From Escherichia coli 042 (GTDB taxonomy: Bacteria; Pseudomonadota; Gammaproteobacteria; Enterobacterales; Enterobacteriaceae): a stretch of DNA of 64,000 bases. Shown piece after piece: positions 45,860 to 49,265 of the stretch. The notes under the pieces were generated by a model. It saw nothing but the letters and a program-made list of their open reading frames with translations. It did no database searches and was not told where the DNA came from. A program made the position numbers and the translations under genes. Location: the NCBI RefSeq assembly GCF_000027125.1, contig NC_017626.1. One strand, given 5' to 3'. Every line of letters starts with the position of its first letter. The stretch's first letter is position 1.

Positions 45860-46648
45860 TTATTTCAGTTCGAGTTCGTTCATTGCAGCGATGCTGAAAC
45901 CGCCGTCAACGTGGACCACTTCACCGGAGATACCGGCAGAGAGATCGGAGCACAGGAATGCCGCAGAGTTACCCACATCTTCAATGGTAACGGTACGGCG
46001 AATCGGGGTAACGGCTTCGCAATGAGCCAGCATTTTGCGGAAGTCTTTGATACCGGAAGCCGCCAGAGTACGGATCGGACCCGCAGAGATGGCGTTAACA
46101 CGCACACCTTCCGGACCCATCGCGTTCGCCATATAGCGCACGTTTGCTTCCAGAGACGCTTTTGCCAGACCCATAACGTTGTAGTTCGGGATAGCGCGCT
46201 CAGCGCCAAGGTAGGAAAGGGTCAGCAGGGCAGAACCCGGATTCAGCATGGAGCGGCAAGCTTTTGCCATTGCAACGAAGCTGTAGGAGCTGATGTCGTG
46301 GGCAATTTTGAAGCCTTCACGGGTAACGGCGTTAACATAGTCACCATCCAGCTGATCGCCAGGTGCAAAACCAATAGAGTGTACGAAACCGTCAAATTTC
46401 GGCCAAACTTTCCCCAGTTCAGCGAACATGGTGTCGATGCTGGCATCTTCTGCAACATCGCACTGCAGAACGATGTCAGAACCCAATTGAGCGGCAAATT
46501 CTTCTACGCGGCCTTTCAGTTTGTCGTTCTGGTAGGTGAATGCCAGTTCAGCTCCTTCGCGGTGCATCGCCTGAGCGATACCGTAGGCGATGGACAGTTT
46601 GCTGGCAACACCGGTTACCAGAATGCGCTTACCGGAAAGAAAACCCAT
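45860..46648 (-). CDS. fabI: Enoyl-ACP reductase (NADH)
   Basis: 262 aa; [40 protein letters not shown]. Confidence 0.97.
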
Positions 46649-46813
46649 AGCTTTAATCCTTATTGTTGATGCTTGTTGTGCCTGAAAATCAGGCGATTCG
46701 TCGTTTTAGTAAACAGTACGAACAGATAAACGGTTATTATAATCAACCTGGCTGTGAGTGGCTATAGTTGCCAGGTCCGACCGGAGCAGGGTGCGGGCAG
46801 GGTGGGCGCTTTT

Positions 46814-47060
46814 CCCCTCACCCTAACCCTCTCCCCAGAGGGGCGAGGGGACCGTATTGTGCAAATATTGTCACCCCAGCAACAAACAGGCTTATACAGC
46901 CCCCTAACCCTTTCAGGGCGATGGCTGGGGTGAGAGTGAATGGTGGTTCAGACCTTGCCGAATATTCTTCATCATCCGCCTCCATGTTTTCACCACAACA
47001 GCTATTCGGCTCGGTCGGCCCCCTCGCCCTTTCAGGGAGAGGGTTGGGGTGAGGGTGACA
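46814..47060. repeat. Cluster of three GC-rich 40-52 bp extragenic repeat units in alternating orientation (REP/BIME-class)
   Basis: Unit 1 at 46814-46851; unit 2 at 46900-46950 and unit 3 at 47009-47060 are direct copies (about 85 percent by eye); unit 1 is the inverted complement of the unit 3 core; unit 3 overlaps the 3-prime end of ycjD. Confidence 0.75.
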
Positions 47061-47394
47061 GGCGGTTCAGTTCCTGCAGAATAATCTCCAGCACCGCCTC
47101 CTCATTACAATCAATCTCGTTATTCCAGAAACGCAGCACGGTCCAGCCCTGCGACTCAAGCCAGCTAGTGCGCCTGGAATCATAGGCAACTGCCAAATCA
47201 TGCTGCCCACCATCCAGCTCAACTACTACACGCGCCGAGCAGCAAGCAAAATCGAGAATGTAGCTCCCCACCGGATGTTGACGGCGAAATTTGAAATCAC
47301 CAAAACGTCGGCTGCGAAGATATCGCCAGAGCTTTCGTTCCTGCGAAGTGAGATTGCGTCTTAAATCACGCGCATTTGATTTTATTTTATCCAT
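47032..47394 (-). CDS. ycjD: YcjD, DUF559 (Vsr-like endonuclease fold) protein
   Basis: About 120 aa; ORF track start is GTG at 47397, ATG at 47394; last codons (SPSPQPSP) lie inside repeat unit 3. Confidence 0.88.
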   Translation of the reverse strand: MDKIKSNARDLRRNLTSQERKLWRYLRSRRFGDFKFRRQHPVGSYILDFACCSARVVVELDGGQHDLAVAYDSRRTSWLESQGWTVLRFWNNEIDCNEEAVLEIILQELNRLSPSPQPSP

Positions 47395-47464
47395 CACCTC
47401 ATTCTGACAAGATTTAATCTCTTGTCAGAATGAGGTGAATAATCTGGAAGGAGGATTCAGAAAA

Positions 47465-48271
47465 TTAACGATCTTTACGCCACGCATCCGCCGTCAATGC
47501 CTCGCCAAAATGACCGGCAATAAGCCGTTTGGTGAGTTCATGCAGCGGCGATGCCAGCACATCGGCGGTGCTGCCTCGCTCGACAACCTCGCCCTGATGC
47601 ATCACCAGCACCTGGTCGCTAATGTGCTTCATCATTCCGATATGCTGGGTAACATAAATATACGAAATGCCCTGTTTTTCCTGTAACTCAAGCATCAGAT
47701 TAATCAACTGCGAACGCATCGACATATCCAGTGAGGCGAGGGCTTCATCGGCAATAATGACTTTTGGGCGCAATATCAGCGCGCGTGCCAGACCCAGACG
47801 CTGTTTTTGCCCGGGTGCCAACATATGCGGATAGTAACTGACGTGATCCGGTAGCAGCCCAACCATACGCATCGTTTCAATAATCTGTTTGCGACGCTGT
47901 TCCGGTTCCAGGTCGGTGTTCAGACGCAGTGGAAAATCCAGAATTTGCGAGATACGTTGACGGGGATTCAACGAGGTCGAAGGATCCTGAAAAATCATGC
48001 GAATACGCTGACTGCGGAAGGAATAATCGCCAAAATGCAGCGGATGATCGTCAATCAATAACTCGCCGCTGGTAGGTTCTATCATTCCCGCCAGCATTTT
48101 TGCCAGCGTGGATTTACCCGAACCATTCTCGCCAATAATCGCCAGTGTCTGGCCTTCACGTAGCGTAAAGCTCAAGGGTTTTACCGCTTCTACGGTCTGA
48201 CGACGAAACCAGCCGGTTCGATAGCGGAACGTTTTACTTAAATTACGCACTTCAAGCAGCGTTTCGATCAT
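47465..48271 (-). CDS. sapF: Peptide/putrescine ABC transporter ATPase SapF
   Basis: 268 aa; Walker A GENGSGKST. Confidence 0.95.
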   Translation of the reverse strand: MIETLLEVRNLSKTFRYRTGWFRRQTVEAVKPLSFTLREGQTLAIIGENGSGKSTLAKMLAGMIEPTSGELLIDDHPLHFGDYSFRSQRIRMIFQDPSTSLNPRQRISQILDFPLRLNTDLEPEQRRKQIIETMRMVGLLPDHVSYYPHMLAPGQKQRLGLARALILRPKVIIADEALASLDMSMRSQLINLMLELQEKQGISYIYVTQHIGMMKHISDQVLVMHQGEVVERGSTADVLASPLHELTKRLIAGHFGEALTADAWRKDR

Positions 48272-48272
48272 C

Positions 48273-49265
48273 TCACTCTTTCTCCATGTTCAGCGGGAAA
48301 TGACAGGCATAGAGATGATTTTTCGCCCCCGTCAAACGTGGCGTCACAATGCATTCTCGTTGTGCATACGGGCAACGCGGCCCCAGACGACACCCAATCG
48401 GTAACTGTTCCAGCAGTGGGATAGCGCCGGGCAGCGTATTGAGGCGACTTTTATGCGGCATCGCGCTGCCGAAGTCTGGTATCGCGCGGATCAGCGCCTG
48501 GGTATAAGGATGATGTGGCATCGTCACCAACTCCTTACTTGGCGCGGTTTCCACCGTTTGACCGCAGTAAAGCACGTTAATTTTATCCGCCCATTGGCTA
48601 AGCATTTGTAAGTCATGGCTGATAAGCAAAATAGTGGTATTGCTGTTTTGGTTGAGACGCGTCAGCAGGCGAAAGATTTGCGCCTGGGTTGTTGGCTCCA
48701 TTGAGTTTGTCGGTTCGTCAGCAATCAGCAGACGCGGTTGATTCGCCAGTGCAATGGCTATCATCACTTTCTGACATTCACCTTCGGTCAACTCATAGGG
48801 AAAACTGCGCATTGCATCTTTGTGATCTTTAATCCCCACGCGGTGCAGCAGTTCAATGGCACGGCGTTTGCGCCAGCCAAAACGCTGCCACCAACGGCCT
48901 TTATAGGTCCAGGCTGGGATGTTTTGCATCAACTGGCGACCCACACGTTCTGAAGGGTCAAGACACGACTGCGGTTCCTGGAAAATCATCGACACGTTGT
49001 GACCAACCAGCTTGCGCCGTTCGCGTGCGGAGAGACGCAGCAAATCGATATCATCAAAACGCATACGATCAGCTGTAACACGCCAGTTATCTTTATTCAC
49101 CCCACAAATTGCTTTCGCAATCAAACTTTTGCCGGAACCGGATTCGCCAACAAGACCGCGGATTTCACCTTCGGTTAAGGTCATACTTACGCGGTCGACG
49201 GCTTTAACCCACTCATCACCGGTTTTAAATTCAATGGTCAGGTTACGAATATCGAGTAATGGCAT
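48273..49265 (-). CDS. sapD: ABC transporter ATPase SapD
   Basis: 330 aa; Walker A GESGSGKS. Confidence 0.95.

Follow-up and report, generated by a model that had tools for sequence, protein, structure and literature searches.

A candidate leaderless promoter within a perfect inverted repeat between sapF and ycjD of Escherichia coli 042

Leaderless messenger RNAs (mRNAs) can arise from promoters situated 7 nt upstream of the ATG, as in lambda cI transcribed from PRM and in tetR of Tn1721. A different arrangement is found in the insertion sequences IS10 (Tn10) and IS50 (Tn5), where the translation start can pair with sequence lying ahead of the point at which the element's own transcript begins; transcripts entering from outside fold and go untranslated, and the element's own shorter transcript is translated. 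This fold-back inhibition was reportedly described by Davis, Simons and Kleckner in 1985, Krebs and Reznikoff in 1986 and Schulz and Reznikoff in 1991. The left end of IS200 has a two-layer design, in which a small terminator-like hairpin comes first and a larger one, covering the start of translation, comes second (PMC4513863). The present report concerns a perfect inverted repeat at the junction of the genes sapF and ycjD in a 64,000-nt stretch of the genome of Escherichia coli 042 (NC_017626.1), hereafter referred to as the window. Judged from its sequence and that of its relatives, the palindrome most likely contains ycjD's own sigma-70 promoter.

A composite model, which is considered to have about an even chance of being correct, combines a leaderless promoter embedded in the hairpin with a fold-back lock on the RNA that reads through from sapF. 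The sapF-proximal arm would provide the -35 element, and the other arm an extended -10 element and a G-rich discriminator, ending at the A of the ATG. RNA polymerase starting in the palindrome would generate a leaderless ycjD mRNA with its 5' end at the AUG or within 1 nt of it, which, being devoid of the 5' arm and having an unstructured, A-rich 5' end, should be translatable. Read-through RNA from sapABCDF would hold both arms and fold into a hairpin of -33 kcal/mol that buries the start region. Since the predicted start falls downstream of the 5' arm, the full stem would be limited to transcripts from the upstream gene, and ycjD translation would thereby be uncoupled from sap transcription. 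The same stem-loop would give the sap read-through RNA a stable 3'-proximal structure, with a small upstream terminator-like hairpin acting as the first barrier before the main one. The exact start site, the leaderless translation and the insulating effect are the components of this model that we infer from the anatomy and conservation described below.

The inverted repeat and the start of ycjD

The genes follow one another on the minus strand in the order sapF (47465..48271), ycjD (47032..47397 in its RefSeq extent) and fabI. The window sequence shares 100% identity with strain 118UI over the length of the query, as compared to 97.7% with K-12, and window positions are converted to MG1655 coordinates (NC_000913.3) by the addition of 1304363. 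The elements of the junction are as follows.

47465..47467, minus strand: stop codon TAA of sapF, 26 nt upstream of the hairpin
47443..47461, minus strand: small imperfect hairpin TCTGAA-TCCTCC-TTCCAGA, just past the sapF stop
47420..47438, minus strand: 5' arm of the hairpin in the sap/ycjD-sense RNA, TCACCTCATTCTGACAAGA; 19 nt, 100% complementary, upstream of the predicted ycjD start site
47413..47419, minus strand: hairpin loop of 7 nt, GATTAAA on the sense strand, inside the promoter spacer
47394..47412, minus strand: 3' arm of the hairpin, TCTTGTCAGAATGAGGTGA, whose last base is the A of the ycjD ATG
47395..47397, minus strand: RefSeq start codon GTG of ycjD, inside the stem
47392..47394, minus strand: conserved ATG of ycjD, whose A (47394) is the 7th base past the -10 hexamer and the predicted +1
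47032..47394, minus strand: ycjD coding sequence, for a protein of the DUF559 / Vsr-like PD-(D/E)XK endonuclease fold

The original prediction, made from the sequence of the window, had described a perfect 18-bp repeat with a 7-nt loop at 47395-47437; its place, perfection and loop hold, and its arms are in fact 19 bp long. The ATG was correctly said to abut the arm (47394-47392, with its A as the terminal arm base), the position of the GAGGTG, which resembles a Shine-Dalgarno sequence, was verified within the stem, in the 3' arm, and the hairpin does lie 3' of the sapF stop with no U-tract on either strand. The base of the stem continues into UGGAUAAAAUAAAA when read in the sense direction and into AUAAUCUGGAAGG in the antisense direction, neither of which constitutes a U-tract; an intrinsic terminator was rejected on this ground, and a terminator scan made no call here.

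Among the perfect short-range inverted repeats of the window, this 19-bp repeat is the longest, the runners-up being of 13 bp, and about 4e-6 perfect 19-bp repeats with a loop of 3-20 nt are expected by chance per 64 kb (64000 x 18 / 4^19). No further copies of the arms were found in the window with up to 3 mismatches allowed. Each of 3377 E. coli genomes has the repeat at a single locus, and a dispersed palindromic repeat of the REP/BIME, ERIC or BoxC kind was ruled out on account of this single locus. A search of Rfam with 46500-48500 yielded no family at the gathering threshold, the only matches being to eukaryotic microRNA hairpin models, at 27 bits or less as against thresholds of 70-100. 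The folding of the RNA, which had been suggested as a check, gave a strong stem: a 60-nt RNA folds at -33.5 kcal/mol as compared to -10.6 +/- 2.8 kcal/mol for shuffled sequences (z -8.3), and the palindrome folded as DNA reaches -21 kcal/mol (z -8.7). The RNA duplex comprises the 19 bp and 3-4 flanking pairs, a length adequate for a substrate of ribonuclease III (RNase III).

The ATG is a conserved start, kept in 26 of 27 homologous upstream regions with K-12 (ATA) as the exception, and appears from the sequence comparison to be the true start of ycjD; the RefSeq GTG occurs in E. coli proper only, is unconserved and is probably wrong in strains that carry the ATG allele. YcjD matches PF04480 (DUF559) with an E-value of 1e-48 over model positions 2-109, the NF007294 equivalog and PDB 3HRL (E 1e-27), and because the DUF559 model aligns from residue 3, there is no room for a start further downstream. 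No transposase domain was found in YcjD, the domain matches being DUF559 (PF04480), and a PADLOC search for defence systems gave no match to the protein. In E. coli just 2 nt separate the GAGG from the ATG, a spacing that would be too short by the established Shine-Dalgarno rules; Enterobacter has GGGG touching the ATG, and Kluyvera has GCACGA or GCCTGA at this position, with no sequence of the Shine-Dalgarno kind. Owing to this proximity and the lack of conservation in other genera, GAGG is unlikely to function as a Shine-Dalgarno sequence. A mini open reading frame (ORF), ATG-AGG-TGA, overlapping the start in the manner of TGATG coupling was also rejected, being unconserved even within Escherichia.

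Conservation of the predicted promoter core and of the RNA hairpin

Scanning for the sigma-70 consensus located the following elements within the palindrome, which the original prediction had not noticed.

47423..47428, minus strand: -35-like hexamer CTGACA, 5 of 6 consensus bases, in the sapF-proximal arm
47401..47409, minus strand: extended -10 element TGtCAGAAT (TG at 47409-47408, hexamer at 47406-47401)
47404..47431, plus strand: mirror promoter-like site CTGACA-16-TGtCAGAAT, predicted start at about 47438, antisense into sapF

The spacer between the -35 and -10 hexamers on the minus strand is of 16 nt and the -10 hexamer ends 6 nt ahead of the ATG. The first 20 nt of the predicted leaderless mRNA are unpaired on RNA folding (z +0.7). 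Genomic SELEX (systematic evolution of ligands by exponential enrichment) with the RpoD holoenzyme alone detected an in vitro binding site in the 67-bp ycjD-sapF spacer of K-12 W3110, and its authors attributed CTGACA-16-CAGAAT to ycjD, with hexamers picked in silico (Shimada 2014, PMC3946193). The mirror site is unconserved beyond Escherichia, its -10 in the Enterobacter group being CAGAAC with loss of T-7; in Escherichia the mirror site is a by-product of the symmetry. By inspection, a sigma-54 reading of TGGCA was rejected for want of a -12 element, and LexA and PhoB boxes for mismatches in sequence and spacing.

The upstream region of ycjD was compared across genera. A protein-guided scan of species-representative genomes gave 24 enterobacterial and 4 alphaproteobacterial ycjD loci, and the comparison was made on 27 regions upstream of ycjD, taken from Escherichia, Enterobacter, Kluyvera, Phytobacter, Klebsiella and others (amino-acid identity of 58-94%). 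As seen with tblastn, sapF is the neighbour of ycjD only at the two Escherichia loci. In the group of Enterobacter, Pluralibacter and Pseudenterobacter, ycjD lies directly after hemW; in Kluyvera, K. spallanzanii and MGYG110 it stands beside a divergent sbp-like gene, and in Phytobacter and Pseudocitrobacter a divergent gene for a periplasmic protein is found upstream. The gene is thus present in at least four chromosomal contexts, and about 75 nt upstream of it are homologous throughout, with a common order of a CTGGAAG..CTTCCAG hairpin with a T-run, TTCTGaCa, a spacer of 16-17 nt, TGgCAGAGT, 6 nt and ATGGA.

The conservation within this region is concentrated on a few positions. The gap of 6 nt between the -10 element and the ATG is kept in 25 of the 27 regions, and the sole invariant upstream columns of the alignment (27/27) are G-32, G-14, A-11 and T-7, followed by C-12 (26/27), T-33 (25/27) and T-15 (21/27); TCTG is near-invariant, and most of the remaining upstream columns carry less than 0.5 bit. 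The four invariant positions are the bases that sigma-70 reads most stringently, and they stay invariant also in the lineages devoid of the hairpin. Phytobacter is missing the -35 element and retains the extended -10. In Kluyvera, Phytobacter and Pseudocitrobacter, ycjD needs a promoter of its own because the upstream gene is divergent. The conserved core is therefore taken to be an extended -10 promoter that would start at the ATG or within 1 nt of it.

The small hairpin at 47443..47461 has a counterpart of common descent upstream of each ycjD homologue, irrespective of the neighbouring gene, in the form of a terminator-like hairpin plus T-run. It had first been assumed to be a sapF terminator, an assumption rejected as only the Escherichia loci have sapF; since it is present where the upstream gene is not sapF, it belongs to the ycjD unit. 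In Enterobacter, the stop codon of hemW is located inside the loop of this small hairpin.

In contrast to the promoter core, the large hairpin is lineage-specific and not family-wide: RNAalifold on all 27 regions predicted no common RNA structure. Pairing in the E. coli register is nonetheless seen in 71% of the alignment cells as against 38-46% for slid controls, and the covariation score is 0.241 as compared to 0.171 at most (reached by 0/500 shuffles), with compensated pairs that include 22-41 (CG 8 / AU 7) and 25-38 (GC 12 / AU 6). In the 11 regions of hemW context, folding energies are -24 to -34 kcal/mol for the sense RNA and -5 to -24 kcal/mol for the antisense, a gain of 4-20 kcal/mol for the sense strand, and the stems are rich in G.U pairs; all 11 have a paired AUG in the minimum-free-energy fold of the sense RNA, and in the window the A of the AUG is paired. 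The Watson-Crick dyad of the Enterobacter group is of just 9-10 bp, the remainder being G.U, whereas every pair of the E. coli stem is Watson-Crick. The strand bias created by the G.U pairs of the hemW group points to selection on the sense-strand RNA rather than on duplex DNA.

The strength of the hairpin also follows the orientation of the upstream gene. In each of the 17 regions where a co-directional gene (sapF or hemW) ends no more than about 70 nt away, the fold reaches -24 kcal/mol or stronger; where the upstream gene is divergent, as in 10 regions, it is always at -14 kcal/mol or weaker. This association is suggestive of a relation between the hairpin and incoming transcription.

Two types of sapF-proximal region are found within E. 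coli. Among the ycjD-type genomes, the perfect 19-bp form is identical across 63 nt in 759 genomes, while the 63-mer of the K-12 form is common to 1421 of 3377. The latter carries a G-to-A change in the 5' arm, resulting in an A.C mismatch near the loop, and ATA in place of ATG (MG1655 1351755-1351757; 1756-1758 of locus L006). An outermost T-to-C change, giving an 18-bp stem (the RM13322 allele), was seen in all four intermediate matches sampled; the N96 form, in which an inner A-T pair is replaced by G-C, was found in 6 genomes; and N96, E1V33 and E69 show imperfections in the outer stem. The K-12 allele is probably a degraded version, and K-12 may be a poor reference for ycjD expression, which matters to readers of K-12 expression data for this gene.

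The second type carries the eefRABCD operon in place of ycjD and is known from phylogroups B2, D, E, F and others (PMC12817139). The 2040 genomes of this eef type are devoid of ycjD and have a 13-bp hairpin directly after the sapF stop, in the order sapF stop, GCACCTCATCCTGA-loop-TCAGGATGAGGTG, the U-rich TTCATTACTTTTG and the stop codon of a convergent gene of the major facilitator superfamily (MFS). This hairpin corresponds to the outer 13 bp of the ycjD-type palindrome, one pair having undergone a compensated change (T-A to C-G); its G/C-rich loop differs in length from lineage to lineage, and the spacing of the promoter elements is lost. Taken together, the two types place a hairpin next to sapF in 5417 of 5426 genomes. 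An example is given below.

L001 (avian pathogenic E. coli O18) 1457-1492, also in L002 and L040-L042: eef-type hairpin between the convergent stops of sapF and the MFS-transporter gene

Rival readings and neighbouring features

Several observations weigh against the composite model. The -10 element is weak (CAGAAT or CAGAGT, 3-4 of 6 consensus bases) with a conserved non-consensus C at -12, and the -35 of the Enterobacter group is CTGCCA or CTGCTG, which fits pairing better than promoter strength. The 27 regions represent about 4-5 independent contexts, so that the covariation and orientation statistics are not strong. The presence of the K-12 allele in 1421 of 3377 genomes suggests relaxed constraint in a large lineage, and the persistence of the eef-type hairpin in the absence of the promoter spacing indicates that the stem has, or had, a role independent of ycjD. 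Finally, the ycjD transcription start sites (TSSs) in the K-12 table of Kim 2012 are weak (3-4 reads) and lie within sapF, with none at the leaderless site; a TSS enters that table only if it lies upstream of an annotated start, and the allele of K-12 is the one with ATA.

The same weak TSSs within sapF, assigned to ycjD by Kim 2012, would agree with a purely RNA-level reading, in which ycjD is expressed from sapF read-through or from upstream starts and the hairpin serves as a constitutive or regulated translational block with no internal promoter. The stem does cover the GAGG, the GTG and the A of the ATG, and the sense-RNA bias and the pairing of the AUG in relatives are in accordance with such a block. 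It is nevertheless considered unlikely, as it leaves unexplained why G-32, G-14, A-11 and T-7 alone are invariant, hairpin-less lineages included, and provides no account of ycjD expression behind divergent upstream genes. Moreover, a 19-bp stem of -33 kcal/mol would not open at physiological temperature and the gene would be permanently silent, and the holoenzyme binding in the spacer seen by SELEX (PMC3946193) also speaks for a promoter. The original prediction that the hairpin sequesters the ribosome-binding site of ycjD is accordingly retained in part: the start region is paired, in relatives with the AUG itself, but GAGG is unlikely to be the Shine-Dalgarno sequence in question. Under the composite model, the occlusion of the ycjD start would be restricted to transcripts that begin upstream of the hairpin.

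The hairpin may instead be mainly a 3' structure of the sap operon, either a terminator or a barrier to 3' exonucleases, with its overlap with ycjD being incidental. The eef-type genomes lend some weight to this proposal, given the 13-bp hairpin with its U-rich tail, compensated pair and varying loop in 2040 genomes without ycjD, and so does the near-universal presence of a hairpin beside sapF in E. coli. However, the ycjD-type stem has no U-tract on either strand, the homologous hairpins of other genera follow hemW and not sapF and travel with ycjD, and a separate small terminator-like hairpin is already present between sapF and the palindrome. The eef hairpin itself represents either a role at the 3' end of the sap mRNA or a remnant of the palindrome, left by short divergence or by its use as a recombination breakpoint. 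As the principal explanation, this reading is also regarded as improbable; as an additional function, a role of the stem at the 3' end of the sap mRNA is plausible. A stabilising role at the 3' end of the sap mRNA, as suggested earlier, or a role in ending it is favoured by the conservation of the 13-bp hairpin where ycjD is lacking; against it stands the absence of a U-tract in the ycjD type.

It is also conceivable, though quite improbable, that the perfection of the palindrome is functionless, the complementary -35 and -10 elements having formed a quasi-palindrome that was subsequently perfected by template-switch repair. Template switching in quasi-palindromes, studied by Ripley and by the Lovett laboratory, is well established as a source of mutations in E. 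coli and yields apparent compensatory changes. CTGACA and TGTCAG are complementary by construction, and the E. coli alleles do vary in stem perfection, as described above for the 19-bp, the RM13322 and the mismatched forms and for the imperfect outer stems of N96, E1V33 and E69. On the other hand, long hairpins arose independently, and from different sequences, in Escherichia and in the hemW group, the strength of the hairpin tracks the upstream orientation, and a sense bias based on G.U pairs is not expected from template switching in DNA.

A DNA-level role, namely an operator for a dimeric regulator (possibly YcjD) over the promoter or a cruciform switch driven by supercoiling, is considered very unlikely. 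The perfect dyad spans -44 to +1 of the predicted promoter, both Escherichia and the Enterobacter group keep the half-sites TCTGnCA..TGnCAGA, and the centre is AT-rich, with a DNA hairpin of -21 kcal/mol. Outside Escherichia, however, the dyad shrinks to 9-10 bp and the G.U pairing that remains is meaningless in duplex DNA; lineages of divergent context without the dyad still keep the promoter, no second genomic copy exists, and a search of the literature gave no transcription factor reported to bind here. The original prediction of a protein-binding palindrome finds no support in the relatives, which need G.U pairs and whose sense RNA folds 4-20 kcal/mol better than the antisense; it stays conceivable for E. 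coli, in which all pairs are Watson-Crick.

Selection for a symmetric bidirectional promoter that produces antisense RNA to the sapF 3' end, or for an RNase III processing site, is extremely improbable: the identical promoter-like site on the plus strand, the stem of about 19-22 bp, which is near the length of an RNase III substrate, and the antisense TSS, term-seq and ribosome-profiling signal reported without coordinates near the ycjD 5' end in K-12 (PMC12817139) would fit it, but T-7 of the mirror -10 is lost beyond Escherichia (CAGAAC).

Some features of the opposite strand were also noted. An ORF of 83 amino acids at 47435-47686 on the plus strand runs antisense to sapF, its first codon being the mirror-image GTG in the palindrome; a strong AAGGAGG motif is present further downstream, at 47448-47454. 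This ORF is probably spurious, though it could explain the ribosome-profiling signal on the plus strand. On the plus strand, the 3' end of ycjD holds a promoter-like GTGACA-16-CAGAAT (47055-47082), and close to the 5' end of the gene there is a weak terminator-like hairpin accompanied by a T-run (47355-47372); between them, an antisense RNA of about 290 nt could cross ycjD and may match the antisense signals of PMC12817139.

Downstream of the coding region, three BoxC-like GC-rich repeats lie on the minus strand between ycjD and fabI, at about 47010-47058, 46900-46940 and 46809-46863, the first of which encodes the C-terminus of YcjD (..SPSPQPSP) and the stop codon. The same BoxC-like repeat closes all enterobacterial YcjD homologues, with 1-7 further copies after it (L009-L029, about 1835-2440). 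One such locus (L018, CACSKA010000005.1), labelled Chryseobacterium sp. 18061, has the enterobacterial hemW-ycjD arrangement, probably through contamination or mislabelling, with five BoxC-like copies at a spacing of 78 bp (2005-2341). The alphaproteobacterial DUF559 homologues carry GGGAGAGG-type hairpins within about 90 nt upstream (L030, about 1417-1437; L031, about 214-236), which resemble the BoxC core. The unit of ycjD and BoxC occupies at least four chromosomal sites, which hints at an association of DUF559 with BoxC. RAYT transposases spread or maintain REP elements; that ycjD forms a compact, relocatable cassette, shielded from host transcription in the manner of insertion sequences and made up of terminator-like hairpin, hairpin promoter, nuclease and BoxC, in which the DUF559 nuclease does the same for BoxC, is a speculative and distinctly unlikely extension of the above.

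Comparison with described systems

One entry in the literature is the RpoD constitutive promoter 'ycjD' of Shimada 2014 (PMC3946193), the hexamers and spacer of which are identical to those described here. In the available part of that report the hexamers appear as a table entry, with no mention of the palindrome, a start at the ATG or the RNA hairpin.

The locus shares with Rho-independent terminators and 3' stabilising stem-loops a stable stem 26 nt past the sapF stop, with a U-rich tail in the eef version. Unlike in Rho-independent terminators, the ycjD-type stem is not followed by a U-tract and is far longer and more AT-rich. The resemblance to the leaderless genes lambda cI and tetR lies in the -10 element that ends 6 nt before the ATG, the probable lack of a usable Shine-Dalgarno sequence and the A-rich, unstructured 5' end of the coding region; the differences are that the ycjD start site is predicted and that K-12 has ATA in place of ATG. 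If the reading holds, a clean and conserved leaderless gene joins the short list of such genes in E. coli.

As in IS200 (PMC4513863), ycjD is preceded by a layout of two hairpins, conserved wherever the unit sits. The second stem-loop of IS200 is, however, contained within its own 5' untranslated region (PMC4513863), whereas that of ycjD straddles the predicted start and its own mRNA would escape the fold.

The likeness to IS10 and IS50 is that a segment upstream of the predicted start would pair with the translation-initiation region, and that strong hairpins are found where outside transcription enters (17/17 co-directional), being weak or absent in the 10/10 divergent cases. The arms of the ycjD hairpin differ in coinciding with the -35 and -10 elements themselves as a perfect 19-bp palindrome, and the gene's own transcript is predicted to be leaderless. 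As ycjD is a DUF559 gene of the Vsr-like endonuclease fold with no transposase, its hairpin is not a member of the IS10, IS50 or IS200 families. Should the composite model be correct, a single 45-bp sequence would serve as a leaderless promoter, as a translation lock on incoming transcripts and as the 3' stem-loop of an operon, and the fold-back protection known from IS10, IS50 and IS200 would extend to an ordinary-looking chromosomal gene.

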